From: Clostridia bacterium
GTDB taxonomy: Bacteria; Bacillota; Clostridia; Christensenellales; CAG-138
Assembly: GCA_017428025.1 (NCBI GenBank)
Contig: JAFRRO010000028.1
Span: forward strand, 3,304-67,303
Direction: 5' to 3'
Length of the DNA: 64,000 nt
In this document: piece after piece, positions 17,602 through 47,987 of the stretch
Layout: each line of letters begins with the position of its first letter
How positions within the stretch are numbered: the stretch's first letter is position 1
Made by a program: the position numbers and the translations under genes
The notes under the pieces: generated by a model
The model's database searches: none
What the model was told of the DNA's origin: nothing
What the model saw: only the letters and a program-made list of their open reading frames with translations

Positions 17602-17609
17602 GAGGAAAG

Positions 17610-18085: not shown

Positions 18086-18102
18086 TTTCTTCATTTTTAC
18101 AG

Positions 18103-19487: not shown

Positions 19488-19489
19488 CT

Positions 19490-20200: not shown

Positions 20201-20319
20201 ACGGATACACCTCCGTTCTTGTAATGTATCATGATTATAAAAACAAGATGTCACCGAACCGTAAACGGAGTGTGAACAATTCGTGTGTAACGCCCCAAAA
20301 CACAGAAATGTCACAAATC

Positions 20320-31727: not shown

Positions 31728-31739
31728 ACGCGTCCCTCC

Positions 31740-32545: not shown

Positions 32546-32626
32546 GCGGTTTCTCCTTTCTCCTTGCGTCGTCGGCGCAACCCGTCGGGCCGCCCGTACC
32601 GGCGGCCCGTATCGTCCTTTCGGCCC

Positions 32627-33823: not shown

Positions 33824-33841
33824 GAATTCGATTCTCCTTTC

Positions 33842-34261: not shown

Positions 34262-35877
34262 GTGTTGCCTCCAAACCATTTGTTTTTCTTTTTCTGCTGC
34301 GGGAACAGCGGTTCCGCCGCCGCTTCCGCTTCCCGGATGTGCTTCAGCACCTGCTCCTTGCCCTCAAAGACCATCAGCTCGATCGCCTGTTCGCGGTCGA
34401 CCGCGCCCATGGAAAGCAGCTTGAGCATCAGCTCGTTCTGTGCGTCCGAGGCGAAACGGCTGCGCTTGACCGCCTTGATCGAGATCGCAAACTCGATCGG
34501 CAGCTCCACGCCGCCCGGCGCGGTCCGGTTCATCAGCTCGCTGTCGAAGAGTACCTCCTTCGGCTGCCCGTCGACGGTGATCGTGACCGGACGGAGGAAG
34601 CAGTTGAACTCGCGCTCGGTCTCGATCTCCATGCGCACCGCCTGACGGAACGCCTCGTGCATCTGCTCGGTCGCCATGCGGGCGCGCTTGGTGCTCATCT
34701 CCTGCAGCGCTTCGATCGCGCGCGCCGCGGTCACGCCGCTTGTGACGTTTCCGCGCGAGCTTTCGTTGGCGCCGCTCTCCTCTTTGATGTCCTCGCGGAT
34801 CGCGCGGATATAGGAGAGCAGATAGTTCGGCAGCGGCGGCGTGGAAAACCACGTCACGCCGTTGAGGCTCTCGCCGGTGTGCACGTCCTTGGACCAGTCG
34901 CGAAGATCGTCCGGATCGAAGCCGGACGCGTCGGTAACCAGCAGCTTGTTGCGCGAGGCGAGCAGAGCGTTTTTCAGCACGAGTTGATCGAGCTTGTCCG
35001 CGTAGCGCTGCTGCGTGCCGAACAGATCGATGATCCCGAAGCCGAGGGCGCTTCCCTTACGCGGGTAGAGCGTCGTCAGTACGAACGGGTACTGACCGTG
35101 TGCAAAATAGCCCTCCGGCTTCACGTCGCGGCTGTCCTCGAGCACCGTCCCGCCCGAGAGGATCGCCATGTGTACGCGATACGTCTCGGTCTTCGCGTCG
35201 AACTCGCGCCACCAGTATTCGAGCAGCAGGCGCGCTTCCTTCGGATCGGGCGAGAGGATCTCGTCGGTCATCAGCTCCGCCGCGTCAACGGGTTGTTCGT
35301 CGATCCGCGCGGCAGTGTCGGGATAGTGCGCTTCGATCCACTCCTTCGAGCGCAGCGCCAGCTTAAAGACCGCACGCCCGTCCTGCAGGTCGGTCACCAT
35401 CGGATCGAACAGGATGTTGCGGATGTCGACGCGCCTCAGGTATGCGCCGCCGAGCCCGCCGTTCTGCGCGCCGTCGTAGCCGACCTCCTGCACGCAGTAG
35501 CCGCCGACCAGCAGATCGTGGATCAGCATGCGGTACTCCACGGGATAGGACGCCGCATCGTGGTTGCGCCGCACGACCGCCTCCACCACGCGGGCGATGA
35601 AGACGTCGGACGCGTTTTCGGGCGTGATGACCGCTTCCGGCACCTGGTCCATCAGATCCGCGGTGATGTTCTCGATCGTCGACTGCAGGATCGGCGTCAC
35701 GGGACGCGGCTCGTTCGGATCGGTCACCGGCACGTCGTACCAGTGCTCGCCGCGATACATGCGCTCGTTGTGCTCCTGCCGCCGCCATTCTCCGGCATAG
35801 GCGTTGCGGAACTCGTTGAACAGCGTCATCGCCCGCTCCGCCAGCTGCCGCTTCGTATCGGATTTTCTGTAATTCAT
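34258..35877 (-). CDS. Phage portal protein
   Basis: 539 aa, immediately downstream of TerL. The N-terminal pattern (ERMYRGEHW...TPILQSTIENITADL) is typical of portal proteins. Confidence 0.75.
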   Translation of the reverse strand: MNYRKSDTKRQLAERAMTLFNEFRNAYAGEWRRQEHNERMYRGEHWYDVPVTDPNEPRPVTPILQSTIENITADLMDQVPEAVITPENASDVFIARVVEAVVRRNHDAASYPVEYRMLIHDLLVGGYCVQEVGYDGAQNGGLGGAYLRRVDIRNILFDPMVTDLQDGRAVFKLALRSKEWIEAHYPDTAARIDEQPVDAAELMTDEILSPDPKEARLLLEYWWREFDAKTETYRVHMAILSGGTVLEDSRDVKPEGYFAHGQYPFVLTTLYPRKGSALGFGIIDLFGTQQRYADKLDQLVLKNALLASRNKLLVTDASGFDPDDLRDWSKDVHTGESLNGVTWFSTPPLPNYLLSYIRAIREDIKEESGANESSRGNVTSGVTAARAIEALQEMSTKRARMATEQMHEAFRQAVRMEIETEREFNCFLRPVTITVDGQPKEVLFDSELMNRTAPGGVELPIEFAISIKAVKRSRFASDAQNELMLKLLSMGAVDREQAIELMVFEGKEQVLKHIREAEAAAEPLFPQQKKKNKWFGGNT

Positions 35878-35901
35878 ATCGTTTTCCTTTCCTTTTTCGT
35901 G

Positions 35902-37233
35902 CTATATCCCGCAGAATCCCGTCAAAGCCGGCTTCGCGGTCGAAAGCGGGTCATAGCGTCTTGCCGGGGTTTGCGGCTTCGGTTCGTTCGCCCGCGGGCG
36001 GGACATCAGCCCGTATCGCAGCGCTTCCGGCGCGTGGTCCTCGCAGGCGTCGGAGACGTCCTCCGGAACGTGCGCGTCGTAGGTCAGCGCGGGCAGGGTG
36101 CGGATGAGATTGCCGCAGTTCTCGAAGATCAGCAGATTCGGCGCGCCGTCCTCCCGGACCGCGAGATTTTCGCGCACGCGCTGCCAGCCCGGGATGCGCG
36201 CATGGTCCGCCGGAATCAGCGGCACGCCGTTTTTCGCGAACACCTCCGCGATGCAGGTCCCCTCCGCGCCCTTCAGCCCGCGCTGCTGCCACGCGTCCGG
36301 CGAAGCGACGGTGTAGGCGATGCGCTCGCCCGCCGAAAGCGTGCGCACCCGCTTTGCGATCTCGCTCGACAGCGTCTTACGAAGATACAGTTCCCGGTAC
36401 ACATACAGCCTGCCTTCCGGCGCCACCGCGAACCAGAGCACGCAGCACGGATCGTTGTAGCCCCAATCCATTGCGCGAAAGCGCTTCCACTCCTTCGGGA
36501 GTTCCGTTGGCTTCACGACGTGTATGCTGCGGTCGAATTCCTGAAAATACTGTCCCTCGAGCACATCCCAGTTGCCGTCGAGATATGCCTTGCGCAGATG
36601 TTCGGGAAGGTTTCGGAGCGTTTCGAGGTACTGCGGGTTCCGGGCGAGCAGAACCGGATTGTCCGTCACCCTCGCCGGAATGAACACATAGTCCTCCGCG
36701 CGCTCGCTGTTGCGGTAGTTCCGGTCGATGAACAGGCGCTTCACCCACGCGTGTCCCACCCCGCCGGGGTTGCAGGTGTAGTACATCCGCGGAGAGAAAT
36801 CGCTGCGCACCGAGCGGTTGCAGGTCGTCAGAAACTGCATCTGCGATTCGGTGAAATGCGTCGCCTCCTCGAGTCCGACGACGTCGTATTCCTGTCCCTG
36901 ATACTGGAACACATCGGCTTCGCGGTCGCAGTAACCGAGCTTGATGCGGCTGCCGTTCGGAAAGAGGAAGGCGCGCTGCGTGCTTTGGTAGTCGACCGCG
37001 CCGTACAGTTCCTTCTGCAGCGGCAGAACGTGGTTCTCATAGAGCTCCGGCAGCGTGCGGCGCAGAAGCAGCAGCCGAAGTCCCGGATAGCGAAAGGCAA
37101 GGAGCACGAACTTTCTGCGCATCGCCCACGACTTGCCGCCGCCGCGCGCGCCGCCGTAGGCAATGTGCCGTGCTTCGGCAAGGAAGAACGCCTCCTGTTT
37201 CGGGTTCGGCGTGCCCGAAAGCGTCAGGATCAT
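35902..37233 (-). CDS. Phage terminase large subunit
   Basis: It has the Walker A motif YGGARGGGKSW near the N-terminus and a C-terminal nuclease-like half. Its ATG overlaps the TerS-like stop. Confidence 0.88.
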   Translation of the reverse strand: MILTLSGTPNPKQEAFFLAEARHIAYGGARGGGKSWAMRRKFVLLAFRYPGLRLLLLRRTLPELYENHVLPLQKELYGAVDYQSTQRAFLFPNGSRIKLGYCDREADVFQYQGQEYDVVGLEEATHFTESQMQFLTTCNRSVRSDFSPRMYYTCNPGGVGHAWVKRLFIDRNYRNSERAEDYVFIPARVTDNPVLLARNPQYLETLRNLPEHLRKAYLDGNWDVLEGQYFQEFDRSIHVVKPTELPKEWKRFRAMDWGYNDPCCVLWFAVAPEGRLYVYRELYLRKTLSSEIAKRVRTLSAGERIAYTVASPDAWQQRGLKGAEGTCIAEVFAKNGVPLIPADHARIPGWQRVRENLAVREDGAPNLLIFENCGNLIRTLPALTYDAHVPEDVSDACEDHAPEALRYGLMSRPRANEPKPQTPARRYDPLSTAKPALTGFCGI

Positions 37234-37544
37234 TTCGCGTACCTTAAAAGCGGCTCGTCCATCGTAACGTGCATCGCCGGCGCGTCGCCGCTCTCCGCCG
37301 AAGTCCCGATCGATCGAAGGACCTCCAGCGCGACCTGATAGGTCAGCTCGCCGAGCAGCGCGCGCTCCTGCGTGTACGCCGCCACCTTGAGAACCGCATC
37401 GAACAGCAGCCGGTCTTTCGCCGTGCGGCGCGGTTCGCGGCAGACTTTGACAAGCGCTTCGGGCGGCAGCTTCGCCGCCCTTGCCAGGCCGAACAGGGTG
37501 TAGGGGATCTGTCTCTCTACCGGTTTTGTCAAGGGATATTTCAA
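37230..37544 (-). CDS. Terminase small subunit-like (gp3-type) protein, probably 5'-truncated
   Basis: IPYTLFGLARAAKLPPEAL resembles the TerS HTH. The only start is a TTG with no SD, and the G+C-rich sequence ends abruptly at about 37545. An in-frame stop lies 6 codons upstream. Confidence 0.5.
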   Translation of the reverse strand: MKYPLTKPVERQIPYTLFGLARAAKLPPEALVKVCREPRRTAKDRLLFDAVLKVAAYTQERALLGELTYQVALEVLRSIGTSAESGDAPAMHVTMDEPLLRYAK

Positions 37545-37671
37545 AAAATAAGTAGATGGTTTTTAGTGATGCCGAATATCTTTTATGACTGGAAGCAGCG
37601 CTTAAGCAACCAAAACGTTCCGATTATTTTGATGTCTTACCGTTATACACTTATTCTGCCGTTGATAAAAA

Positions 37672-37738
37672 TCGGCGATAATCGGCGATAAAAAAGTAGC
37701 GATAATTGAAAATAGCGATATTAAAGTAGCGATAAAAA
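37672..37738. repeat. Five direct GCGATA(A/T) iterons
   Basis: GCGATAA occurs at 37675, 37685, 37699 and 37729, and GCGATAT at 37715. The first two form the tandem TCGGCGATAA x2. The context is AT-rich. Confidence 0.7.
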
Positions 37739-37808
37739 AGAAAGAAAAATCACATCATTCCCGATACAGGTAAAAATTATATAATGTGGAACAGATTTGT
37801 CCTTATTT

Positions 37809-37835
37809 CACTTCATCCCAACTTGGGATGAAGTG
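37809..37835. repeat. Perfect 12-bp palindrome (CACTTCATCCCA-act-TGGGATGAAGTG)
   Basis: Read directly from the sequence. No T-run follows on either strand, so it is not an obvious terminator. Confidence 0.7.
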
Positions 37836-37927
37836 TCTCCGGAAAACATCCGGATATGATTAACACATAAGAAATCGTATGCGTTTCAGTTATTTAAAGT
37901 TAACATATATAAGGAAACTTTGAATCC

Positions 37928-38101
37928 AACGGATGAAATGTCGGGTATGAAGGGCAGAAAAGCGATTGCCGAAAATCCCAGTAAATATGCAAAAAGTGCC
38001 TAATTATCTGGGTTTTTGGCGTTTTTCATTTGGTTCAATCTGTTCAAAAAACCATAGAAATACACTCGTTTATGATCAGAGTGTTGTCAAAAATGTTGTC
38101 A
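37928..38101 (+). repeat. Island repeat, copy 1 (174 bp)
   Basis: By hand alignment it is roughly 85 percent identical to 44600-44773. The last 35 nt (38067-38101) are identical and contain the tandem TGTTGTCA-aaaa-TGTTGTCA. Confidence 0.8.
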
Positions 38102-38187
38102 AAATTTGCCTTCAAACATCCTGTTTCGCCCTCTTGATTGTTTGCAAAACAGCGAATCTCATTTAACCAACATTTTTGTCGAATCTA

Positions 38188-38216
38188 TTGACATGTAGGT
38201 TATGACGAATTATACT
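38188..38216 (+). promoter_or_regulatory. Consensus-like promoter
   Basis: TTGACA (38188-38193), a 17-nt spacer, then TATACT (38211-38216). It lies upstream of the 38236 gene. Confidence 0.65.
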
Positions 38217-38235
38217 ATTCGTGGAGGAAGATGAT

Positions 38236-38532
38236 ATGTCTGCTGTTGATGAATTGATACTCGAAGAAGCGGAACGGCTTAAACGGATTCGCACGGCAAA
38301 GCTGCGTGATTTTGACATGCTTCCAAAAGGAAGCATCCGTAAAAAGAGGATCAACGGTCGTGAGTATCATTATCTTCAGTGGCGAGACGGGAAACGTATA
38401 CGGTGCAAGTACATTCCGGCGGATGAACTGGAAGCTGTTTCCAACCGCATCGATCGCCGCAACAATCTGAAAAACGAGATTGCAGCGATCAACGCCGATC
38501 TATCAAAATTGCAAAGGATCATAAAAGCATGA
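38236..38532 (+). CDS. Hypothetical small protein (98 aa) of mobile-element type
   Basis: GGAGGA lies 6 nt upstream of the ATG at 38236. The pattern GSIRKKRINGREYHYLQWRDGKRIRCKYI followed by a coiled coil recurs in element-borne small proteins as I recall, but I cannot name the family. Confidence 0.6.
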   Translation: MSAVDELILEEAERLKRIRTAKLRDFDMLPKGSIRKKRINGREYHYLQWRDGKRIRCKYIPADELEAVSNRIDRRNNLKNEIAAINADLSKLQRIIKA

Positions 38533-38712
38533 CGAGCATTCAACAAAAAGAATTCTTGGATTTTATTACTCTGTTCGTTTTCGTTTTCTATTGCCTTTCG
38601 GTTCTCGTTGTCAGACTCCGCAATCCATATGAACGATCGATTCGTCCACGACATTGATGATCAGCGTTTTATGCATCCAGGGTATCAGAGAAAGAAGAAC
38701 ACATTCTAAACT

Positions 38713-38992
38713 CTTTATCCAGCTCAACGGCGGCACCATCTCCATCAACAGCAAAGATGACGGCATCAACGCCGCCCAGAAGTCCAGCGCGTACCGGGCG
38801 AAGGCGGAGATCAACGGCGGCGACATCACCGTGGTCATGGCCTCCGGTGATACGGACGCTATCGACTCCAACGGCGACCTCATTATCAACGGCGGCACCA
38901 TCATCGTCAACGGCCAGCAGATCAACTATATCCCCAACCAGATGATGGGCGGCGGTCGAGGCGGCATGGGCGGCTGGGGCAGGCGCGGTTAA
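38713..38992 (+). pseudogene. C-terminal fragment of a carbohydrate-binding-domain (parallel-beta-repeat) secreted protein
   Basis: Only the final repeats are present (LNGGTISINSKDDGINAA..INGGDITV..INGGTIIVNG). There is no signal peptide or N-terminal body. It is a G+C-rich patch inside the AT-richer island. Confidence 0.55.
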
Positions 38993-39008
38993 CAAACATT
39001 TAAAAAAC

Positions 39009-39356
39009 GTGCTTACTGTAGAAAAGCTGAAAGCCTTTGGCGCGAATACGGCGGAGGGCGTCGCGCGCTGCGTCAATAACGAGGCGTTTTATCTGCGCAT
39101 GGTGAGTAAGGCTATGTCAGATGCCAATTATGGAAAACTCGAGGCGGCGATCCATGTGGGGGCCAAGGCTCCCGCGTTTGAAGCGGCTCATGCCCTGAAA
39201 GGCGTTCTAGGTAATCTTTCCTTGACGCCGATCCTGGAGCCGGTTATGGAGATCACGGAGCTGCTCCGCTCCCGGGCCGACGCAAATGCAAATTATGAAG
39301 CGATCCTCGAAAGGATCCTGATGAAAAAAAGAGAACTGGATCTGCTGGCACAGTAA
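39009..39356 (+). CDS. Hpt (histidine phosphotransfer) domain protein
   Basis: 115 aa with a GTG start. The phospho-His motif is AAHALKGVLGNLSL. Confidence 0.8.
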   Translation: MLTVEKLKAFGANTAEGVARCVNNEAFYLRMVSKAMSDANYGKLEAAIHVGAKAPAFEAAHALKGVLGNLSLTPILEPVMEITELLRSRADANANYEAILERILMKKRELDLLAQ

Positions 39357-39393
39357 TAGAAAGCGTTTTGAAGAAGCAAACACATAAGGACAA

Positions 39394-39442
39394 GGATCGT
39401 GGATGAGAGTTTGGGTATCTCTCCCATCCACGATCCATTTTT
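39394..39442 (+). terminator. Intrinsic terminator after the Hpt gene
   Basis: GGATCGTGGATGAGAG...CTCTCCCATCCACGATCC forms a long stem and is followed by ATTTTT. Confidence 0.8.
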
Positions 39443-39633
39443 ACTGCTTCGGAACCTACACTTCTTCTGTTTTCCGCTCGTTAATACTAATACCTGACTA
39501 AAAGAAGATTTCGCCCTGCCTTTGGCTCACTCCGGTCAACGATGCGTTTAGGCATCCCCTCCCTACGTTCACATTCGGCAGAATGAAAAATGTCTCGGCA
39601 ATCTTGCCTCCCTTTTATCAGGTCTTAATATTA

Positions 39634-40563
39634 TTATTTTTGCCGGTCACGATAGGTTTCAACGATACCGCGCAGCAAATCAAGGTGTTCGTAATTCTTG
39701 AGATAAACGATATTGATTTCTCTCATCATGCTGAAATTTTCGATTGTCAGCAGCGACAGGCGCCCGCGGCGAAGCTCGCTCATACACGCGCTCTTTGCCA
39801 GCACCGAAACACCGAAACCGCCACGGATCAGATCCTTGATCGTTGCAATGCTGTCAATTTCCATGACAATATTGAAATCATTGATGCTGAGATTTTGACT
39901 TTCAAGCGATGCCACGAGCAAATTGCGGGTGTTCGAATTTGGCAGACGCAGGATCAGCTTTTCTTTTTTCAACTGGTCGATTGTGACAGTTCCCTGCCCG
40001 GCAAGCGTGTGATCTGGTGGAACCGCCAACACAAGACAATCGGTGTCCAACATCATGCAACCCAGCGCAGGATCGTTAACCCTACCTTCAACGAATGCGA
40101 AATCCAACTCGAAATTACGCAGCATTGCATATAGATTACTTGATGTGTTCGTGATGATTTTCAGACTTAACTTATCAAATCGGTTCACATACGAAGCAAG
40201 TGCGTTTATAATAGCGCTGCTCTCAGCGGTATGTGTAATACCGACCGTCAATGAATGAATCTGTTCACGCTCGCTCTTTAGCGTTTGTTCAAGATTGCGT
40301 TGAAGAGCGACCATGCTTCTTGCAAAATGAACAACGATCTCGCCCTCGTGTGTGAGTTGAAGGCGATTATGTGAATGATCAAAAATCTGCACGCCGAGTG
40401 AGCTTTCGATCTGCCGAATGTGCTGGCTGACTGCCGGTTGTGACAATGAAAGAACAGCAGCTGCTTTGGTATAGCTGCCCATTTCGACAACCTTCAAGAG
40501 AGTAATAATACGAACATCTATCAATTTTTCTTCCTCCGTAATACTATCATATCCCTTTTTCAT
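39634..40563 (-). CDS. LysR-family transcriptional regulator
   Basis: It has an N-terminal wHTH (GSYTKAAAVLSLSQPAVSQHIRQIE) and a LysR substrate-binding domain of the expected length (309 aa). Confidence 0.9.
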   Translation of the reverse strand: MKKGYDSITEEEKLIDVRIITLLKVVEMGSYTKAAAVLSLSQPAVSQHIRQIESSLGVQIFDHSHNRLQLTHEGEIVVHFARSMVALQRNLEQTLKSEREQIHSLTVGITHTAESSAIINALASYVNRFDKLSLKIITNTSSNLYAMLRNFELDFAFVEGRVNDPALGCMMLDTDCLVLAVPPDHTLAGQGTVTIDQLKKEKLILRLPNSNTRNLLVASLESQNLSINDFNIVMEIDSIATIKDLIRGGFGVSVLAKSACMSELRRGRLSLLTIENFSMMREINIVYLKNYEHLDLLRGIVETYRDRQK

Positions 40564-40632
40564 TTATAATGCAACGAACTGCTGTATACAAATACTCTTA
40601 TCTGCTTTTTGACTTCGCGGTGTCGCTGCGGA

Positions 40633-41004
40633 TTAATCGGGATCTATAAGGTCAAAATCAGAATCTGATAAACGAGAAAAGCAGATATCTACACAACCAT
40701 ACTCTGTCAAACCGGCTTTCAGTTCCAGTGGAATCTCATCTGAATTCAATTCGATCAAAAAGCGGCGAACAGACATACCGTTATAGTCACTTCCGTATAG
40801 AAATCGATAGCGACGAGTATAGCGCGAAAGTAATGAAAAAACGGATTTATCGGGTAGATGGCAATCGGAACAATTGCATCGGTAATACAGATAACGCATT
40901 TTGGCTGAACGGCGGTCGATTCGACGGTATAACAAAGCAAGTACAATTAAGAGACATATGGACACAGCTAAACAGCAAATTGGGAGGGCAAGGGATTTAA
41001 GCAT
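40633..41004 (-). CDS. Hypothetical membrane-anchored protein (123 aa)
   Basis: It has an N-terminal TM segment and a Cys-rich stretch (YYRCNCSDCH). It lies between the MATE and LysR genes. Confidence 0.5.
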   Translation of the reverse strand: MLKSLALPICCLAVSICLLIVLALLYRRIDRRSAKMRYLYYRCNCSDCHLPDKSVFSLLSRYTRRYRFLYGSDYNGMSVRRFLIELNSDEIPLELKAGLTEYGCVDICFSRLSDSDFDLIDPD

Positions 41005-41016
41005 GGGTAAGCTCCT

Positions 41017-42408
41017 TTAGATATATGATAGGGGAACTTGAGCATAGGCGGCGGCAAGGCGTTTGCGAATAAATGCTGTATACATTACATTGGCGACGAC
41101 GCAGCATATTAAGTCGGCAATTGGCGTAGCCATAACGATACCGTAGACAGGTAGCATAAGGCTGATAATAAACATCAGCGGAATATCAACAATGCCCTTT
41201 CGAAGAATTGCAAGCAGGAAAGATTTTCCTCCGTCGCCTGTCGCTTGGAAGAACGAAATCAACACATATGCGCTGGCAGAGAATGGGCCGCCAATGCAAA
41301 GAATTCGCAGAAATATGATGCCGAATTCAAGTGATACAGACTCCGAATGAATAAAAATCCCAATCAAAGGTCTTGCAAACAGTAAACTGACGATCATGCA
41401 TAGCAAGGCGGTTACAACCGCTATGAAATGTGAAGTGCGCACACAATCTCGCATTCGGTTAATATTCTTGGAGGCATAGTTATAGCCGATCAGAGGCAGA
41501 GAACCCTGGGCAATACCGCGCACAATGCAGTGCGCCAGCATATTGACCTTTTTAGCGACACCGATGCCTGTTTGCGCCGAGAGCCCAGACAAGGACATTA
41601 ACTTGTCAAGGATCGCATAGGAAATGTTTTCAAACAACGTCATGATGAATGCCGGTAATCCAGCCGTCAGGATCCTTACGGGGATTCTGTTGGACAGCAT
41701 TGCCTTTGTTGGAACAAATCTGAGAACTGTATGCTTTCGGATGCAGATCAATATAATTATGAAATATAGCAACGATATCATGTTTGCAAGCGTCGTAGCG
41801 ATCGCGGCGCCGAGTGCCTCATTCCCCGCTGGCAGAAGAACGAACATAAACAGCGGATCAAAAACAATATTCAACACACCGCCGAGCGCAATTCCAACAG
41901 CGGCATGAACGGACCGCCCTTCGGAACGAATCAAGTGGGACAGCAACACGCCGGTTGCCGTTACGATCCCGCCGGCAACAACCGTACACAGCATATAAGC
42001 GACAGCGTTGTTGTGTACCGCAGGATTGGTTCCGCCGAGAAGATCGACAAACCAATCGATGCTGATCCAAGCAAAGGCAGAGTAGAACAGTGTCATACCA
42101 ATACAGCCCCACAGGGCGAACGCCGATGCCATATGTGCTTGAGTACGGTTTTCCGCGCCGAGTGCTCTGGCTATAACGCTTGCGCCGCCGACGCCGAACA
42201 AATTTGAGATTGCCGAAAGGAACATGAAAGATGGCATACATACCGTTACAGCAGTCATCATAGCATCATTGCCGGTAAGACCAACAAAAAAAGTATCTGC
42301 CATATTATATATGACAAGGATAATCTGCCCAATGACGGTAGGGAAGGCCAGACGAAAGATGGCTTTTGTCACGCTACAGGTTTCAAAAAGCTCTTTTTCG
42401 TTTCGCAT
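41017..42408 (-). CDS. MATE-family efflux transporter
   Basis: I trimmed to the ATG at 42408 (463 aa). It has 12 TM segments and a typical MATE N-terminus (AIFRLAFPTVIGQIILVIYNMADTFFVG). Confidence 0.9.
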   Translation of the reverse strand: MRNEKELFETCSVTKAIFRLAFPTVIGQIILVIYNMADTFFVGLTGNDAMMTAVTVCMPSFMFLSAISNLFGVGGASVIARALGAENRTQAHMASAFALWGCIGMTLFYSAFAWISIDWFVDLLGGTNPAVHNNAVAYMLCTVVAGGIVTATGVLLSHLIRSEGRSVHAAVGIALGGVLNIVFDPLFMFVLLPAGNEALGAAIATTLANMISLLYFIIILICIRKHTVLRFVPTKAMLSNRIPVRILTAGLPAFIMTLFENISYAILDKLMSLSGLSAQTGIGVAKKVNMLAHCIVRGIAQGSLPLIGYNYASKNINRMRDCVRTSHFIAVVTALLCMIVSLLFARPLIGIFIHSESVSLEFGIIFLRILCIGGPFSASAYVLISFFQATGDGGKSFLLAILRKGIVDIPLMFIISLMLPVYGIVMATPIADLICCVVANVMYTAFIRKRLAAAYAQVPLSYI

Positions 42409-42832
42409 TTCGTGCCTTGCCTCCGTGAAGATCTGTTTGTTTTGAGATGTTGCACTTATTGTAATGGGCAGCCCCTGATAATGCAAATCAGGATTCTGAA
42501 GAGCGTCATAAGTTTTTATTATTGAATATGAGAGGAGTTGTCAAGAATACGATAAAAGCAGTAATAATGAATGATTTACCCTATCACAATTCGTAATAGG
42601 CTATAAAGAAAATCAAATACGCGCTGACTACGGCAATAGGTTCCGAGCGGCTGGTCCGATATAACTACTATACATAGGCACGGAGACGCGGCACTATGCG
42701 TTCACGGACCACACAAGAGGATAGCAAAGTAGGCGCGTCGGCAGGAAAGAGACAATACGAATCATCTTGTCCGCAGAAGACACGACGAGCCGGAACGGTG
42801 ATCCCGTTTACGCTTTCCTGCTGTCTCTATTA

Positions 42833-43183
42833 TTAGTTCAATGTTGCTTTTGCCTGTTCAGCGCACTCCATGAATCGTTCTATCACGCTCCACTGGTAGG
42901 AGCTTTCTTTGTAACCAAATCGGATCGGGTATTCGGATATCTTTCCCAGGGAAAAAGCATCATAGAGCTTTTTTGCTTTTCGGTCAACATCGCTTGTACG
43001 ATGTTTTTCGGACAAAAGCACCCTCCAACGCCATTGACGCAAAGCTTTAGCCTGCCTCTTTTTCCCCATGATGTAGAGCAACCCTTCAAAAGCGTAGCCA
43101 ACTTGGCCACATTTTTCATCGTTCCAGATTATAGGTGCGAGATCGTTGTTTTTGCTGTTCCTTGACTGGGTGCTTGAGCGCAT
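42833..43183 (-). CDS. Hypothetical protein downstream of the relaxase (start uncertain: 43183 or 43069)
   Basis: The ORF overlaps the relaxase 3' end by 68 nt if the first ATG is used. No motif was recognised. Confidence 0.4.
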   Translation of the reverse strand: MRSSTQSRNSKNNDLAPIIWNDEKCGQVGYAFEGLLYIMGKKRQAKALRQWRWRVLLSEKHRTSDVDRKAKKLYDAFSLGKISEYPIRFGYKESSYQWSVIERFMECAEQAKATLN

Positions 43184-44429
43184 ACTCTGCCCGGAGCTCC
43201 GCTTTGAGAAGGTTTAACAGGCGGGGTGTGTCTCGCTGGATGCGTTGGAGGCGCTTGATCCGCTGGCGCAGGGGCTGGATCTGGCGGGTGATCTCGGCCC
43301 GGTCCTGGCGGTTCTCGGCCAGGACCTGGGGATCGGTCTTGTGTCGGATGCGGTTGCGGACTTTGTTACGCTGCTGGTCCAGGGCGGTGATCTGGGCTTC
43401 GGTGCGCTGGATCTCCTTGCCTATGTCGTCGATGGAGTGGAGCCCGTTGTCCTTGAGGAACCGGTAGTCGGCATGGAACTGCGCCACGTTCTGGGGCTCG
43501 TGGCGCAGCTCCGCCGTCAGGATGACCTCTTTGGTGAAATGAGTTGCCAGCTCGATCAGGGCCAGCAGTATTGCCAGGATGGCGTCGGCCAGGATCACCG
43601 CCGTATCGTGGGTGTGGTTGGCCTCATAGATCAGTTCGTCCATGATCTTCTCCACGGGGGACCGGGTATCGTTCTTCGGCTGGTGGTGTGGGCGGGACCG
43701 TTCCTTGTATGCCTGAGACAGCGGCATCCGGGAGATGCGGGTATGCTCCATCTCCATCACGACCTGTAGGAGCACCCCGCTTTTGCTGATATGGGGCCTG
43801 TGATCCTGGACCCGATAGCGGAATTCCGGGTCCGCCTCGTTCCGGTCCCATTGCTCATACATGACTTCATCCGTAAAGCCCAAACGGTTCAAACGCACCG
43901 CTCGTTGCCAGTTCTCGGCTTTCACGGACATGCGGACGGGGTCGATGGAATAGCCCTTGGCTTCCAATTGCCGGATAAACGTATCCCAGTCTATGCTATA
44001 TCGTAGGCAGTAGTCGATGTCTTGTTTCAACTGCTCCCGGTGGGTGGGCTTGCCGTCTCGCTGGCTCTTCCAGTAAGCCTGTCGACTCTGGCCGCCGTAG
44101 AAGGGGGCGTCGATCAGGACAGAGAGTCCGCGTTCCTTGCAGATGGCGTCCGAGATCTCCCGCAGGTCATGGTGCTGCTCTATGCTGTTCCTGTACTTGT
44201 GCCCGTCCCGGAAGGAGACGGAGTTCACTATAAAATGATTGTGCAGATTATCCGTATTCAGGTGGGTGGTGACCAAGACCTGGAAATCCTTGCCCCACAT
44301 GCGGCGGGCGGTCTCCAGGCCGATCTCATGGGCCTGCTCCGGCGTGACCTCGCCGGTTTTGAAGGACTGATACCCGTGATACGCAACAACCTTGCCGCGC
44401 TCACCGTATTTTCGCTTGACCGCCATCAT
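43116..44429 (-). CDS. Relaxase/mobilisation nuclease domain protein (main frame; N-terminus displaced by a frameshift)
   Basis: It has YHGYQSFKTGEVTPEQAHEIG and the histidine triad region TTHLNTDNLHNHFIVN. Relaxase-like sequence (SPEKTDEKKYVSGVNC) continues upstream of the annotated ATG in the same frame, with no start codon there. Confidence 0.8.
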   Translation of the reverse strand: MMAVKRKYGERGKVVAYHGYQSFKTGEVTPEQAHEIGLETARRMWGKDFQVLVTTHLNTDNLHNHFIVNSVSFRDGHKYRNSIEQHHDLREISDAICKERGLSVLIDAPFYGGQSRQAYWKSQRDGKPTHREQLKQDIDYCLRYSIDWDTFIRQLEAKGYSIDPVRMSVKAENWQRAVRLNRLGFTDEVMYEQWDRNEADPEFRYRVQDHRPHISKSGVLLQVVMEMEHTRISRMPLSQAYKERSRPHHQPKNDTRSPVEKIMDELIYEANHTHDTAVILADAILAILLALIELATHFTKEVILTAELRHEPQNVAQFHADYRFLKDNGLHSIDDIGKEIQRTEAQITALDQQRNKVRNRIRHKTDPQVLAENRQDRAEITRQIQPLRQRIKRLQRIQRDTPRLLNLLKAELRAEYALKHPVKEQQKQRSRTYNLER

Positions 44430-44566
44430 CTCCTCATACGCAAATGCCGCCGAACAATTGACGCCGGAAACATATTTCTTTTCGTCGGTCTTCTCCGGCG
44501 ACGCGGCAAAGCCGCGTATACGAACGGACGCTGCGCGCCCGTTCTCGCTGCCCCGGCCGCGGACAT
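44426..44566 (-). pseudogene. Probable relaxase N-terminal segment in a different frame (46-aa ORF)
   Basis: GGGAGG lies 8 nt upstream of the ATG at 44566. MSAAGAARTGAQRPFVYAAL fits the motif-I region (G....Y) of relaxases. It joins the relaxase frame after a 1-nt shift near 44495-44515. Confidence 0.5.
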
Positions 44567-44599
44567 AAAAATGACCTCCCGTAGCGGCGATCCGATTCG

Positions 44600-44773
44600 A
44601 ACGGATGACAGGTCGGGTATGAAGGGCAGAAATGTGATTGCCGAAAAAACCCGTAAATACGCAAAAAGCACCTAAATACCTGAGGTTTCGGCGTTTTTCA
44701 TTTGGTTCAATCCGTTCAAAAAGTCATAGAAAAACAATCGTTTATGATCAGAGTGTTGTCAAAAATGTTGTCA
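44600..44773 (+). repeat. Island repeat, copy 2 (174 bp)
   Basis: This is a direct repeat of 37928-38101. It lies immediately upstream (in the minus sense) of the relaxase start. Confidence 0.8.
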
Positions 44774-45080
44774 GTTTCTCGTGTTCAGGCATTTGTTTTG
44801 AGTAGAAAGCAAATGAAGAAACCGGCTGTTAATGAAAAAAGCGCAAGCCCAATATTGCTTGCATCAATGTGACGTTTTCACCCGGAATCGAATTGCTCTT
44901 TTTGGTAATATACCACAATATCTTGTTATAAGCAATTCAGTTCTGTACTACATATGGAATATTTGATCCAATATGTCCATAGAAAAAAGATAAACTGTGT
45001 CCACTTCGTGTCCCGAATGCCGGGGTTGTTTTTCATATGATCATCCAAAGTAGATCAGACACGGAACGGGGAGATTCTGC

Positions 45081-45941
45081 TTACCGCAAACCGCAGTATT
45101 CCAGACTTTTGTTCCAAAGCTCATCCCTGTTCCCTTCGCTGTAGGAAAGCTCGGACGATTTCTTTATGCTCGTGCTCCTGTCAAAGTACTGTCCGGATAC
45201 GCCGTCAAACCGGCTGTCCACGGCGATCTGCGCCAGCGCGTCGGAAGACGTCCCCAGCTCTCCGTAGCGATCCGGCATGGTGGTCTTTACAACCAGCGCT
45301 CTTGCCTTGTCCGTATGTCCGCCGGAGAAGTTGGTCGCTGCCATAAAGCCGGGATTGAAAGAGTTGACGGATATTGACGAGCCCTGCTTCTTCAGCAACT
45401 CATCCAGTTTCAGCGTAAAATAGATCGCGCAAAGCTTGGAATAGGAATACCGCCGCCGATCTATCATCGCCTCATGCGCCAGATATCCCACGCCCTTCCA
45501 CTCGATGCCTCCGGGCGGGTTGTGCATATCGCTGCTTACGTTAATAATTCGTCCGTTCGGCGCCATATGCGGAAGGAGTAGCTGCGTCAGCAGAAAATGC
45601 CCCAGATAGTTGGTGGCAAAGACAACCTCAAAGCCTTCCTCCGTCGTTCCGCTGTCACGCATGGGAGAGATCCCGGCGTTGTTGATCAGCACGTCCACCG
45701 TGCCGTATGCTTTTATGTAATTGTTCGCAAATTCTCTTACGGAGGACAGGAGAGAGGTATCGAGCCGCAGAGTTTCAACCGCATCATTCCCCGTCGCGGC
45801 AATGATATCCGCTTTTGCCTGCGCCGCCTTTGCATCATTCCTGCAGGCAAGGATCACTCTGTATTCCTTGCTTGCGGCGATCTTCTTTGCCGTTTCAAAT
45901 CCGAGACCGGAGTTGGCTCCGGTGATGACAACAGTTTTCAC
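45081..45941 (-). CDS. Short-chain dehydrogenase/reductase (SDR) family oxidoreductase
   Basis: GTG start with AAGGA upstream. It has the cofactor motif TGANSGLG, NNAG, and the catalytic YSYSK (YxxxK). Confidence 0.88.
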   Translation of the reverse strand: MKTVVITGANSGLGFETAKKIAASKEYRVILACRNDAKAAQAKADIIAATGNDAVETLRLDTSLLSSVREFANNYIKAYGTVDVLINNAGISPMRDSGTTEEGFEVVFATNYLGHFLLTQLLLPHMAPNGRIINVSSDMHNPPGGIEWKGVGYLAHEAMIDRRRYSYSKLCAIYFTLKLDELLKKQGSSISVNSFNPGFMAATNFSGGHTDKARALVVKTTMPDRYGELGTSSDALAQIAVDSRFDGVSGQYFDRSTSIKKSSELSYSEGNRDELWNKSLEYCGLR

Positions 45942-45995
45942 GTTTTACCATCCTTTCTGCAACAGCGCTGCAGGAAATCGTCCCTCAGCGCTGTT

Positions 45996-46817
45996 CACAT
46001 ATACGACTCGATCGGGCCGGACGCGGTTCGTGCGGCGAAAAGCGCCCGCTGGATCTGCGCTGCCCGCGCCGGCGTCAATACGCTGTGCGATGCGTCCCTC
46101 TATCGGAATCCGGATTGCATCCTGTCCAATTCCTGCGGCGCGTACGGCGTCACGGTTGCGGAGCACACCGTCATGCTGCTGCGGCGGCGGCGGCAGCCGG
46201 AAAACGACGCCGCCCTCCGCGCGGGCGGGTGGAAGCCGGAACAGAAACAGATTATGACGGTATCCGGCAGCCGGATCACCGTGCTCGGGACGGGTGATCT
46301 CGGCAGCCGCTTTGCAGAGCGGATCCGTGCGTTCCATCCGAAAAAGCTGCTCGGCGTCCGCAAAAATCCGGAAAAAGAAAATCCGCTGTTCGATGAAATC
46401 CGCGGAATTTCCGAGCTCGAACAAGTTCTGCCGGAGACGGATATCCTCGTAATGTGCCTCCCGGACACCAAAGAAACGGCCGGACTGATGTCCGCCGAGC
46501 GGATCGCGCTGCTTCCGAAGGAGAGCTGTCTCATCAACGTCGGTCGCGGCACCGCTGTGGACCAGTCCGCTCTTTTGAGCGCACTGTCTTCAGGGCGGCT
46601 CAACGGCGCAGCGCTGGATGTCGTCGATCCGGAACCGCCCGCGTCGGATGATCCGGTTCGGCACACCGACAGCCTGATCCTCACGCCGCACGTCGCAGGA
46701 AACACCAATAATCGCCTTTCGATAGACAACCTGATCGATCTATTCTGCGCCGAGTTCGAGCGCTACGTTTCCGGCAAACCGCTTCTGCATCGGATCGACC
46801 GCAAAAGAGGGTACTGA
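45996..46817 (+). pseudogene. D-isomer-specific 2-hydroxyacid dehydrogenase, 5'-truncated
   Basis: Homology begins at ..ARWICAARAGVNTL and runs through the NAD-binding domain (VLGTGDLG, GRGTAVDQ, PHVAG). The N-terminal catalytic-domain part (roughly 60-70 aa) is missing. The first in-frame ATG is at 46173. Confidence 0.55.
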
Positions 46818-46860
46818 CGCCATATTTGAATGCGGGAAAACAGACAAAACGCGGAGGGTA

Positions 46861-46990
46861 TACGCGTGTAATCCCGTGATTTCCGGACAGATTGAACCAA
46901 AAGAAAAACGCCGAAAACCCGGGCATTCTGCCGCTTATCGCAAAACTGCCGGGATTTTTGGCAGTTTTGCGCTTTACAGCCGACCTGCCG
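46861..46990 (-). repeat. Island-repeat-related element, copy 3 (inverted, diverged, G+C-richer)
   Basis: The reverse complement aligns with copies 1 and 2. The core is GGCGTTTTTC(A/T)TTTGGTTCAATC, and the imperfect stem is preserved by a compensatory change. It lies in the convergent spacer after the L,D-transpeptidase-like gene. Confidence 0.6.
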
Positions 46991-47006
46991 TCACTTAAGG
47001 GGAACG

Positions 47007-47774
47007 TTATCTTTCGACGGGCCAGACGCCGGAAGGCCAATCCGCGCCGCCGGAGAGGGCGTCGTAGGTATCAATCACCACGACCGTGTCCGCGTCGACG
47101 CGCCGCATGACAAACCGCATATGGTCCTCCGGGATGGCGACGCAGCCGCCGGTATACGGCTTGACCGGACCGAAGCAGTGCAGAAAGATCGCGGAGCCGA
47201 GACCCGGCGTGCCTTCTTCGTTGTAACTGATGTTCAGACAGTACCGGTAGTGATAGACGTAGTCGATGATATGCTCGGAGTCGCCGCTTTCGATATCGAG
47301 ACCCGGCAGATCTTTGAGATCGACGAGCTCGTTATAGCGGTACCCCTCGCGCGGATCGCCCGACCAATAGGTATCGTTGTCCACCTTGACGTAGGGGATC
47401 AATGAGCCCGGATCGTCGGCAATGCCGAAGGCCCGATTGAAGCGAAACACGCCGACCGGCGTCTTGGCGTCGCCCTCGCGCGTTTTGCCGAGACCGTTCC
47501 TGCCGATGAAGCCCGGCGTCGTCATGACCATGTGCCAGCTTCCGTCGCTCTGCTTTTCGTGCAGCGAGATCCACGCGTCCGTCGCGTCCTCCGATAACGC
47601 CGCGACGACAAAGATCTGCTTTGCGTCCTTCGCGGCTTCCAGCATCGCGACCCACGCCGGCGAAGCGACGTCGATCCCCTGATACTCCGCGGTATTCGCT
47701 GCCTGCCTGGCGCATCCGATCAGCAAAAGACAAAGAAACAGGCACGCCGCGAGAAAACAAACGGTTCTTTTCAT
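47007..47774 (-). CDS. L,D-transpeptidase-family (YkuD-like) lipoprotein
   Basis: The ATG at 47774 follows AGGAG. It has a lipobox (LLLIGC), and a conserved His followed by the catalytic Cys motif: GSAIFLHC...TGGCVAI. Confidence 0.75.
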   Translation of the reverse strand: MKRTVCFLAACLFLCLLLIGCARQAANTAEYQGIDVASPAWVAMLEAAKDAKQIFVVAALSEDATDAWISLHEKQSDGSWHMVMTTPGFIGRNGLGKTREGDAKTPVGVFRFNRAFGIADDPGSLIPYVKVDNDTYWSGDPREGYRYNELVDLKDLPGLDIESGDSEHIIDYVYHYRYCLNISYNEEGTPGLGSAIFLHCFGPVKPYTGGCVAIPEDHMRFVMRRVDADTVVVIDTYDALSGGADWPSGVWPVER

Positions 47775-47854
47775 ACGATACTCCTGTGTACGGTTTCCGA
47801 TTCGTATTTCTTTCCGAAGACCCCTTCGGACGTAACGAACGTATATCACAACCC

Positions 47855-47935
47855 GTCCAACAAATGTCCAACAGCCGCGTAGATTTCGATTCAATACATG
47901 GAAATCCGGCAAAATGTGTTGGACATTTGTTGGAC
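47855..47935. promoter_or_regulatory. 19-bp perfect inverted repeat (GTCCAACAAATGTCCAACA ... TGTTGGACATTTGTTGGAC) in a divergent promoter region
   Basis: The arms are 47855-47873 and 47917-47935, with a 43-nt spacer. Each arm is a tandem of TGTTGGACA. It lies between divergent genes starting at 47774 (-) and 47988 (+). Confidence 0.65.
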
Positions 47936-47987
47936 AGGATTTGTTATATTATAATGATTTTATAAGGAATCCGGGAAAGGAATAAAA

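Follow-up and report, generated by a model that had tools for sequence, protein, structure and literature searches.

A low-G+C mosaic between two truncated genes

How did a low-G+C mosaic with three copies of one structured element come to lie between two broken genes? The window analysed here is a stretch of 64,000 nt from a Clostridia bacterium (GCA_017428025.1; GTDB lineage Bacillota; Clostridia; Christensenellales; CAG-138), corresponding to positions 3,304-67,303 on the forward strand of contig JAFRRO010000028.1. The original prediction placed an abrupt drop in G+C at 37545 and a recovery near 45996, with which windowed G+C agrees: the value falls from ~0.65 to 0.36 at 37545 and is back up at ~46000 (0.60-0.67 until 37499, 0.36 at 37500-38249, 0.40-0.58 within the island and 0.60-0.62 from 45750-46499). 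The boundaries are formed by two genes:

37230-37544, minus strand: left boundary, small ORF (TerS by position) upstream of and overlapping TerL, 5'-truncated by ~34 codons
46000-46817, plus strand: right boundary, 2-hydroxyacid dehydrogenase (Pfam 2-Hacid_dh_C), first 61 codons missing

Alignment with intact homologues in the related loci L042 and L001 showed that both genes lack their 5' ends, as predicted. The ~34 N-terminal codons missing from the small ORF are present in the L042 homologue, which starts MNKTAQRLKGAIGAYFAACD, and the same truncation upstream of TerL was observed in L003. The left gene had been described as TerS-like; its truncation stands, and the TerS label is positional because the small ORF has no match in Pfam or PHROG. 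L001 carries an intact 332-aa dehydrogenase relative to which the breakpoint lies at 46000, and from that position onward L001 is 97.8% identical to the window. Relatives with the same gene order and intact flanks, which had been named as evidence against an island, were not encountered; gene orders differ in L042, where the small ORF is intact, and in L001, where the dehydrogenase is.

The predicted contents of the island (relaxase relic, MATE pump, LysR regulator, Hpt, SDR and a G+C-rich fragment) were matched by the Pfam results:

37545-37921: AT-rich flank A (G+C ~0.35), with five GCGATAA-type repeats at 37670-37749
38102-38575, plus strand: left end of an X-type element, with a promoter-like site at 38188-38216 and a 103-aa ORF at 38221-38532
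38576-43115: mosaic cargo, comprising the Cthe_2159 fragment, Hpt, LysR, a 123-aa ORF, MatE and a 132-aa ORF
38654-38992: Cthe_2159 fragment, G+C-rich (Pfam)
39009-39356, plus strand: Hpt (Pfam)
39634-40563, minus strand: LysR (Pfam)
41017-42486, minus strand: MatE (Pfam)
43116-44495, minus strand: MobA/VirD2-type relaxase relic without ~46 N-terminal residues
44774-45999: Y-type element remnant and SDR gene, its right end being the breakpoint inside the dehydrogenase gene
45081-45941, minus strand: SDR (Pfam)

Flank A is tied to the truncated small ORF and to repeat copy 1 in L003 too. The left end of the X-type element is 95-97% identical to L014, L020 and L035, where the repeat module described below precedes it as well, and its promoter-like site scored 11/12 in a promoter scan. 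The cargo at 38576-43115 found no match and no counterpart in a BLAST search against all fetched related loci. On the right, 44581-45457 is 98.6% identical to L064, and the first 240 nt are 91-96% identical to L003 and L018. The relaxase relic (PF03432 match at 43116-44429 on the minus strand, starting at profile position 30) aligns at 66.7% aa identity with residues 42-505 of a 504-aa relaxase encoded by L031, which is an IME with a tyrosine integrase, located at tRNA-Met. The 64-kb window contains no gene for a large serine recombinase or a tyrosine integrase, no tRNA and no tRNA 5' half. A functional IME was considered and rejected: with no integrase in the window and a relaxase that lacks residues 1-46, there are remnants only.

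The repeats carry half of a tRNA-Met gene

Two 174-bp direct repeats, ~85% identical and sharing their last 35 nt, had been predicted, and were recovered as a 180-nt direct repeat (37922-38101 and 44594-44773, spacing 6672) with 88% identity and an identical final 36 nt. The third copy, described as diverged, inverted and G+C-richer, is real; a repeat search detected it at 46880-46963 with 71-75% identity, and nhmmer extended it to 46843-46996 (E=1e-38). The nhmmer profile found no fourth copy in the window, where the 22-mer GGCGTTTTTCNTTTGGTTCAAT occurs exactly three times versus none expected in shuffles. The parts of the copies are as follows:

37922-37951, minus strand: copy 1, decayed partial tRNA-Met 3' half (T loop to anticodon loop), 19/23 positions matching
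37952-38101, plus strand: copy 1, module, with hairpin arms at 37968-37981 and 38008-38020, a T tract at 38021-38031, two GTTCAA repeats at 38033-38047 and two TGTTGTCA repeats at 38082-38101
44491-44580, minus strand: native tRNA-Met downstream region (B'), with homology to the flank that follows the tRNA in L015, L018, L030, L033 and L049
44581-44623, minus strand: copy 2, tRNA-Met(CAT) 3' half from anticodon loop to acceptor, the displaced half of a putative attR junction
44624-44773, plus strand: copy 2, module, with a partly degraded stem and two TGTTGTCA repeats at 44754-44773
46843-46998, minus strand: copy 3, with a partial tRNA-like stretch at 46972-46998 and the module at 46843-46971

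The left 30-46 nt of each repeat are the reverse complement of the 3' half of tRNA-Met(CAT), from the anticodon loop to the acceptor end. This half comprises the anticodon loop TTCATAC, the T arm ATCCG-TTCGAAT-CGGAT and the acceptor CGCCGCT followed by ACCA, and the intact gene in related loci is called tRNA-Met(CAT) by ARAGORN. All 43 positions of 44581-44623 are identical to intact tRNA-Met genes in 35 metagenome loci; copies 1 and 3 hold decayed forms of the half, and in copy 1 the similarity stops at the T loop. The tRNA-Met half, which identifies the integration target, had been missed in the original prediction.

Scanning metagenomes with the tRNA half yielded 49 loci, to which three loci with the half from a genome scan were added (L001, L002 and L004). 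Downstream of GGGTATGAA there are two classes only, the intact tRNA (38 loci) or the module (14 loci), while the tRNA half is flanked on the left by a native terminator hairpin, by the 3' end of a gene for a large serine recombinase or by the P' region of a tyrosine integrase. From these three left flanks and two right classes it follows that all four att configurations of one core (attB, attL, attR and attP-like/tandem) exist among the 52 loci. The arrangements seen in the metagenomes of rumen Clostridia/Christensenellales were an intact tRNA with its own native terminator, an integrase gene directly against an intact tRNA, a tRNA half with the ~150-bp module, and an integrase end, tRNA half and module all together. 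No single contig among the fetched loci has an integrase at one end of an element and a module at the other. Ordinary metabolic genes are frequent in the DNA right of modules, and some of the "elements" must therefore be very large, truncated or long fixed.

Judged from its flanks, copy 2 qualifies as a bona fide attR: on one side is DNA native to the region downstream of the tRNA (44491-44580), on the other element DNA. In B', 22 nt are deleted, and with them one half of the tRNA terminator as well as two CCA bases. Copy 1 adjoins a decayed tRNA half and a non-native flank. L003 combines the left flank of copy 1 with the module and the right flank of copy 2, and the switch from one copy to the other maps to an 18-nt stretch at the anticodon loop, where crossover would be expected. 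Copy 3 had been taken for a native att-like target; instead, it is an older diverged junction of the same type that predates the split from L001, where it is kept at ~98% between the same two convergent genes. It begins 9 nt past the YkuD stop codon, in the direction of YkuD, within the spacer between these genes.

Origin of the array

In our judgement, the repeats are very probably tRNA-Met attR-type junctions with ~150 bp of element end, and the island a decayed tandem accretion of mobilisable elements. The core of the earlier proposal, that related mobilisable elements accreted or decayed in tandem at an att-like site, is thus supported, the repeats being att-derived IME junctions. This is a familiar kind of genome scar and not a new system. 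Integration into tRNA-Met(CAT) would displace the 3' half of the gene, antisense on the repeat strand, and fuse it at the anticodon loop to the module. Successive elements entering the one tRNA site would produce tandem accretion, so that junctions would pile up as direct repeats. Later deletions may have removed the integrase genes, the relaxase 5' end, most of the cargo and the intact tRNA, which would leave an immobile mosaic at 37545-46000. Since there is no integrase or tRNA and only a truncated relaxase with cargo fragments, the island reads as a dead tandem array of tRNA-Met-specific IMEs, and since intact tRNA-Met lies outside the window, either the array was displaced from its target or the target was deleted. 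The wreck of an integration hotspot explains both the low-G+C mosaic and the two truncated genes, and annotators should not treat the 6.6-kb "unit" as an active element.

An origin by segmental duplication, or by unequal exchange between homologous copies of a 190-bp sequence, would involve no site-specific recombination and could make use of the 88% identity over 180 bp, and L003 could be a deletion product of the window arrangement. Such an origin is very unlikely, as the repeat boundary coincides with the anticodon loop and the tRNA 3' end, the same junction occurs in many unrelated metagenome flanks with integrase genes alongside, and the switch between L003 and the window is confined to an 18-nt interval. 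Equally, the conserved hairpin and T tract, with some compensatory changes, and the position of copy 3 in an intergenic spacer between convergent genes might suggest something unrelated to integration: a MITE or other dispersed intergenic repeat, or a gene for a small RNA that ends at its own terminator. Against this, every module copy found is joined to a tRNA-Met half, and the dispersed repeat unrelated to mobile elements that the original prediction had allowed for was thus not what we saw; only three copies occur in 64 kb, and an exact-core scan of 185,579 species genomes returned four contigs and one chance match in a coding region. Rfam gave no match to the module at E<=1, the module shows neither terminal inverted repeats nor target duplications, and an 18-codon ORF within it is not preserved in the diverged copy of L060, all of which makes an unrelated repeat or RNA gene highly improbable.

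The module and its hairpin

Outward from the core, the module consists of a terminator-like hairpin with a T tract, two GTTCAA repeats and two TGTTGTCA repeats. Its edges are sharp, with three different interiors (X, Y and Z) following the second TGTTGTCA. Pairing in the hairpin is kept in 83% of cells versus 31-49% in slid controls. The stem had been reported as kept in all three copies, which is accurate for the hairpin overall but not for copy 2, where the stem is degraded. The compensatory A:T to G:C change noted earlier is real; a single such change is thin evidence, because the three pairs changed on both sides are all in the copy-3 lineage.

An oriT, a recombination site or a terminator had been suggested as the function of the hairpin. 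A stem and T tract are present, the loop region is ~26 nt and a consensus terminator scan does not call the hairpin, which in relatives follows the recombinase gene and at copy 3 follows YkuD. TGTTGTCA has 58 occurrences across the fetched loci versus ~16 expected, concentrated in modules (two each) and beside the tyrosine integrase gene (three each). A terminator-like role for the hairpin, together with protein-binding repeats of an attP arm, would be the better readings of the module. An oriT nicked by the relaxase of the element is barely credible: structured inverted repeats are common at oriT sites and the relaxase relic lies ~170 nt from copy 2, but this closeness is the product of the deletion junction at 44491-44495. 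In the intact relatives L031, L057, L060 and L064, 2-8 kb separate the NikA and relaxase genes from the module or tRNA, and the module accompanies elements of two relaxase families (PF03432 and Mob_Pre).

Two integrases at one tRNA gene

Integrases of two types were found at tRNA-Met, a large serine recombinase of 489 aa, with final codons that run antisense to the tRNA, and a 376-aa tyrosine integrase followed by three TGTTGTCA repeats before the tRNA. Most likely, the module acts as the P arm of a lambda-type attP used by the tyrosine integrase. As in lambda-type systems, the block of identity begins in the anticodon loop and continues to the tRNA 3' end, the SAM-like domain of the integrase is preceded by an N-terminal extension, and the arms are predicted from the sequence to hold two and three repeats ~100-175 bp from the core (P arm two sites, P' arm three). 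Unlike in lambda-type attP, the two arms are known here from separate loci, and on its module side the anticodon loop has no clear inverted core-type sites beside it. Crossover by tyrosine integrases in the tRNA anticodon loop is attributed to Williams 2002, as cited in PMC3218068. L031/L061 is the one tyrosine-integrase element that comes with a long flank, and the 10 kb past its relaxase contain neither a module nor a tRNA half.

The junctions could alternatively be made by the large serine recombinase crossing over in the anticodon loop, with the module as the far end of its elements; the last 14 codons would then give the replacement tRNA half, and the hairpin and T tract would terminate the recombinase gene in the excised circle. 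The contiguity of recombinase gene, tRNA half and module in five independent lineages (L004, L010, L048, L064 and L060, the last with a diverged module) fits this, as do the position of the stop codon TGA in the anticodon loop, 2 nt from the identity boundary, and the start of the hairpin ~20 nt further on (in diverged form in L060). The module architecture is kept beside a recombinase only 61% identical, where both copies of the repeat have changed in concert to TGTCGTCA, and 18 recombinase-tRNA junctions revealed no second sequence class after the tRNA half. We nevertheless regard this explanation as rather doubtful. Arm sites are not used by serine recombinases, yet the 8-mer of the module is the triple repeat beside the tyrosine integrase, and across the family the change of sequence in the serine-recombinase C-termini falls in the T stem or T loop and not in the anticodon loop. 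Junctions formed by T-loop crossover would escape the search pattern, and the counting argument from the 18 junctions therefore falls.

The large serine recombinase probably crosses over in the T loop, as the change points in its C-termini suggest; a T-loop recombinase that forms tandem islands is already on record for tmRNA (PMC3146451). It could then enter any copy of the tRNA half, displaced ones included, and the frequent position of its gene immediately upstream of the module would be accounted for. As the 3' end of the recombinase ORF is the antisense of the tRNA 3' end, its C-terminal tail would differ between the excised and integrated states, and as the whole serine target would lie inside the displaced tRNA half, each tyrosine-type integration would make a new landing pad. 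We tentatively propose, at somewhat less than even confidence, that tRNA-Met of these rumen Clostridia is common to two unrelated integrases, the tyrosine integrase (anticodon loop) and a widespread family of large serine recombinases (T loop), and that tyrosine integrations seed mixed arrays.

Comparison with known systems

Tandem accretion of ICEs and IMEs, with remnants and cis-mobilisable elements, has been described at Firmicutes tRNA genes (PMC5704250, PMC12084326). Our array resembles these in the entry into the tRNA 3' part, which is restored by element-borne sequence, in the tRNA 3'-part direct repeats that mark borders, and in the decayed elements without integrase or relaxase carrying efflux and regulator cargo. 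It differs in having no intact tRNA or any integrase, in one inverted junction and in a conserved repeat that runs ~150 bp into the element arm.

The ssrA islands of Dehalococcoides owe their integration to the CcrB-like serine recombinase DsiB, with insertion inferred in the tmRNA T loop, and occur as tandem islands (PMC3146451). Common to both systems are a serine recombinase at a tRNA-like gene, tandem islands with repeated 3'-end fragments, a ParB-domain gene in the integration module and some islands without integration genes. In Dehalococcoides the target is tmRNA, the repeat is 20 bp and there is a second small recombinase, DsiA, whereas here tRNA-Met is the target, the 3' end of the tRNA is crossed in antisense by the recombinase ORF itself, and no recombinase gene is left in the window.

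If the T-loop specificity is true, these recombinases would be compact, naturally tRNA-directed integrases, and displaced tRNA halves that seed island accretion would have a concrete mechanism. Serine-recombinase integration into tRNA genes has been called rare (PMC3218068); the related loci point to a large uncharacterised serine recombinase family whose coding ends overlap tRNA-Met.

Repeats and the displaced tRNA-Met half

The repeat search and alignment bore out the direct repeat pair and the inverted third copy of the original prediction.

37922–38101, copy 1, direct repeat of 180 nt
44594–44773, copy 2, direct repeat of 180 nt, 88% identical to copy 1
46880–46963, copy 3, inverted, 71–75% complementary to each direct copy and extended to 46843–46996 by an nhmmer profile built from all copies

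The same profile detected no fourth copy in the window. The three-way alignment has an invariant core, GGCGTTTTTC(A/T)TTTGGTTCAATC, and the window has exactly three occurrences of this 22-mer core, shuffled sequence none. Scanning one genome per species for the core returned four rumen Clostridia/Christensenellales contigs and one chance in-gene match. In three of these four contigs, the left repeat boundary reads TGGTAGCGGCGATCCGATTCGAACGGATGACAGGTCGGGTATGAA, the reverse complement of which is a tRNA 3′ half with the following parts:

anticodon loop TTCATAC, anticodon-stem strand CCGAC, variable loop CTGTC
T arm ATCCG-TTCGAAT-CGGAT, acceptor strand CGCCGCT, discriminator A, then CCA

Neither the window nor L001–L004 (L numbers denote fetched related loci) yielded an ARAGORN call for a tRNA or tmRNA, and Rfam gave no family for the repeats at the gathering threshold or at E ≤ 1; both are silent at the tRNA half because its 5′ counterpart is lacking. 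An interpretation as a tmRNA or a whole tRNA was dropped, as there is no 5′ acceptor partner and the window does not contain the tRNA 5′ half.

A scan of metagenome contigs for the tRNA half gave 49 loci. Counted over these and the three genome-scan loci carrying the half (L001, L002, and L004), the sequence that follows ...GGGTATGAA is of just two classes in the 52 loci. In 38, it continues CCGACTACTCTGGCC... as an intact gene, tRNA-Met(CAT) according to ARAGORN, whose chromosomal neighbors in L012 are folD and glyA; in 14, it continues as the module of about 150 bp seen in the window. The right boundary of the module is sharp, with three unrelated interiors (X, Y, and Z) following the second TGTTGTCA 8-mer. 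The original interpretation, accretion or decay of related mobilisable elements at an att-like site, is supported and is sharpened by the finding of the tRNA-Met half.

At tRNA genes of Firmicutes, integrative elements are well known to accrete in tandem and to decay (PMC5704250, PMC12084326), and tandem serine-recombinase islands at a tRNA-like gene are known from Dehalococcoides (PMC3146451). The window feature is a new, dead example of this already known kind. Integration of serine recombinases into tRNA genes is reported to be rare (PMC3218068). Of the by-products, the most interesting is found outside the window: a large family of serine recombinases whose coding 3′ ends overlap tRNA-Met.

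Module layout and hairpin

The conserved stem with a compensatory change, claimed earlier, stands as regards pairing, as 83% of the cells of the long imperfect stem pair compared with 31–49% in slid controls. The hairpin structure is conserved, but covariation support is thin, since changes on both sides of the stem are all in the copy-3 lineage and the copy 2 stem is degraded. Read in repeat orientation, the features after the stem are GTTTTTCATTT, a pair of GTTCAA repeats, a short inverted repeat, and a pair of TGTTGTCA. A simple terminator scan did not call the module hairpin. A diverged module homologue in L060 (nhmmer E = 1.4e-5), next to a serine recombinase with just 61% identity, has the same layout, with both 8-mers altered in concert to TGTCGTCA, a joint change that argues for a role of the 8-mers as putative protein-binding sites. 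An 18-codon ORF, which starts from an ATG antisense to the anticodon and overlaps the serine recombinase stop codon, was dropped as a candidate; its length is kept in close copies and not in the L060 module.

Island composition and boundary genes

Windowed G+C confirmed the abrupt composition step that had been claimed, with 0.60–0.67 up to 37499, 0.36 at 37500–38249, 0.40–0.58 across the island, and about 0.60–0.62 from 45750. The predicted gene list was likewise recovered by Pfam:

left of the island: phage portal protein and TerL
inside the island: G+C-rich Cthe_2159 fragment, Hpt, LysR, and MatE
MobA/VirD2 relaxase, match beginning at profile position 30
SDR; 2-hydroxyacid dehydrogenase
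right of the island: YkuD and nucleoside phosphorylase

The 4.5 kb containing the Cthe_2159 fragment, Hpt, LysR, and MatE, which follow an X-type remnant, have no counterpart in any fetched locus, and neither the island nor the repeat matched plasmid and phage collections or viral contigs. The window lacks a serine recombinase gene, a tyrosine integrase gene, a tRNA, and folD-glyA synteny, the marker of the native tRNA-Met neighborhood in L012.

The left boundary gene, a small ORF upstream of TerL, is truncated at its 5′ end as predicted, being about 34 N-terminal codons short compared with L042, a locus with an undisrupted phage-like cluster 5 kb away from an intact, occupied tRNA-Met. Its "TerS-like" label reflects position alone, as neither Pfam nor PHROG gave a match for the ORF. 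The phage head-and-packaging cluster as a whole (30297–37544) encodes a virion protein, a major head protein (phrog_1357), a portal protein, TerL, and the small upstream ORF, and is kept in two other MAGs with about 78–80% nucleotide identity (L003, 166–6300; L042, 8460–13004); the L042 cluster is on the opposite side of tRNA-Met and in opposite orientation.

On the right, the 2-hydroxyacid dehydrogenase is truncated as claimed, 61 codons short compared with the intact gene of L001. This locus is 97.8% identical to the window, solely over 46000–47253, and in it the truncation affects YkuD rather than the dehydrogenase. In both genomes, the same pair of convergent genes encloses copy 3, which is therefore older than either rearrangement. 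It begins 9 nt past the YkuD stop codon and runs in the same direction as YkuD, a placement from which it may now serve as the YkuD terminator; such a role would account for the stem having been kept through three compensatory pair changes.

Attachment junctions in the window

Copy 2 matches the tRNA-Met half at 43/43 positions (44581–44623), and the adjoining 44491–44580 has homology to DNA downstream of the tRNA in five other loci. Judging by this match and by the native downstream DNA, copy 2 is a genuine attR; in the adjoining DNA, half of the tRNA terminator and two CCA bases have been lost through a 22-nt deletion. The relaxase gene lacks its first ~46 codons and is fused to the native tRNA-downstream DNA at 44491–44495; its closest relative found is the relaxase of the L031 tyrosine-integrase element (66.7% amino-acid identity).

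The copy 2 tRNA half, module, and 680 nt of right flank are 98.6% identical to L064, which carries an intact serine-recombinase element where the window has native flank and relaxase relic. L064 tracks the window to 45457 and then continues with window 56238 to 55405 inverted, the join being an 8-bp microhomology, CCGCCGCC (L064 10133–10140; window 45450–45457 and 56239–56246). An inversion in the window relative to L064 was dropped: the gene at 56172–56840 is intact in the window, and the rearrangement therefore belongs to L064, in whose lineage a 10.8-kb inversion has disrupted this gene.

The tRNA part of copy 1 is decayed, extending from T loop to anticodon loop only (19/23 positions); beyond it come an AT-rich flank and, next, the truncated ORF that precedes TerL. 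All three (ORF, flank, and decayed tRNA stretch) recur in L003 at about 78% identity overall, and there this copy-1-type left side leads into the copy 2 module variant and right flank, so that the window and L003 are one repeat unit apart. The switch between them falls within an 18-nt stretch at the anticodon loop, the place expected for a site-specific crossover. To the right of copy 1, only 470 nt of an X-type element are left, 95–97% identical to L014, L020, and L035, in which the sequence runs on into a nucleotidyltransferase and cargo.

The AT-rich flank, common to L003 only, also holds five iteron-like GCGATAA/GCGATAT repeats (37670–37749, between the truncated ORF and copy 1), which may be a replication-origin or operator remnant of another element.

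Attachment configurations in related loci

Left of the tRNA half, the loci have native tRNA terminator hairpins, which are native downstream DNA, or a serine recombinase 3′ end, or a tyrosine-integrase region. All four att configurations were seen:

empty sites
integrase-tRNA junctions (18 with serine recombinase, 7 with tyrosine integrase)
downstream flank, tRNA half, and module
integrase end, tRNA half, and module

The large serine recombinase (489 aa) has Resolvase, Recombinase, and Zn_ribbon_recom domains, and the last ~14 codons of its gene are antisense to the tRNA, with the stop TGA within the anticodon loop. The tyrosine-integrase region comprises, in order, a 376-aa gene, three TGTTGTCA with 11-nt spacing, two AAATGAGCACAA, a terminator, and the tRNA. 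Elements beside the integrases are mobilisable, not conjugative, and encode ParB with Mob_Pre and AAA_25 (L028, L042, and L064) or NikA, a PF03432 relaxase, and ParB (L031, L057, and L060). The search for a complete two-ended element recovered none: no second tRNA half was present within 10 kb in L058, L060, and L055, no module was present beyond the relaxase in L061 and L062, and the L064 contig stops inside cargo.

The tyrosine-integrase element of L031 also encodes a 1009-aa protein (4172–7201, minus strand) matching Pfam RdRP (PF05183, E = 3.5e-16), a cellular RNA-dependent RNA polymerase family that is odd for a bacterial mobile element. L002 has three CACACGAT(T/A)(A/G)CCCATCT repeats at ~19-nt spacing (7570–7640), ~200 nt from the tRNA end, which resemble arm-type sites for yet another integrase specificity at tRNA-Met.

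A conserved stretch of ~130 nt containing three hairpins occurs downstream of tRNA-Met, in the ~170 nt next to the gene in L015, L018, L026, L030, L033, and L049, and in the window at 44491–44580. Its stems vary between loci yet stay paired, it is preceded by an 18-nt tRNA 3′-end remnant broken in the T loop, and no Rfam family matches it credibly. A miniature element is one possible reading, the far end of a T-loop-targeting element another.

Which integrase made the junctions

Whether a tyrosine integrase or a serine recombinase made the junctions is not settled. The module 8-mer is that of the triple repeat beside the tyrosine integrase gene, and its 58 occurrences over the fetched loci (about 16 expected) are nearly all in modules or beside the tyrosine integrase; the two module and three integrase-side copies are candidate arm sites of a lambda-like arrangement. 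Tyrosine integrases typically cross over in the anticodon loop, and the relaxase relic belongs to the tyrosine-type backbone, which also counts for a tyrosine integrase. That the serine recombinase made the junctions is favored by its gene abutting tRNA half and module in five lineages and by there being no other sequence class after the tRNA half.

Among 120 homologues of the L004 serine recombinase (P0001–P0120), many have their stop codon in the T loop and a terminal peptide that is antisense to the T stem and acceptor of the tRNA, others keep the reading frame on to the anticodon loop, and a conserved alternative tail, GCGG[TS]QH.[LF]PEILF, starts right after the T stem. Endings include ...AAIRFERMTGRV, ...GFEPTTSGL, and ...GCGGRI, and P0002 departs from its 89%-identical relative just after the T-loop codons. 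These changes of tail at the T stem and T loop point to a probable crossover of the serine recombinase in the T loop, matching the inference drawn for the serine recombinase behind the tmRNA islands in Dehalococcoides (PMC3146451). This would account for the absence of serine-type junctions in a search needing T loop plus anticodon arm. As a T-loop target lies wholly within the displaced tRNA half, serine-recombinase elements could enter tyrosine-type attR junctions, which would account for the adjacency of recombinase and module. This combined model, in which tyrosine-type junctions were later entered by T-loop serine elements, is the one we prefer, with chances that are roughly even; its main caveat is that the only tyrosine-type element with a long flank has no module within 10 kb past the relaxase.

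L058 differs in that its recombinase gene overlaps another tRNA-Met.

Other features of the window

Stretches of 15227–20284 are weakly similar, with 67–85% identity, to DNA 0.3–8 kb off the 5′ side of tRNA-Met in many loci, and the spacer at 14721–15030, corresponding to the tRNA-side spacer elsewhere, has no tRNA; either the tRNA was lost here or the resemblance is paralogous. A TPP riboswitch (RF00059, 61.5 bits; 21014–21105, minus strand) is the sole Rfam family at gathering score in the window. The Cthe_2159 fragment (38724–38914) has internal repeats of the form TCAACGGCGGCACCATC... with a 75–87-nt period, consistent with a fragment of a putative beta-helix repeat protein. Between YkuD and the phosphorylase gene, a 32-nt inverted repeat (47842–47948, 88% complementary) has two TGTTGGACA copies per arm, giving four operator-like sites that resemble the module's TGTTGTCA and are not identical to it.
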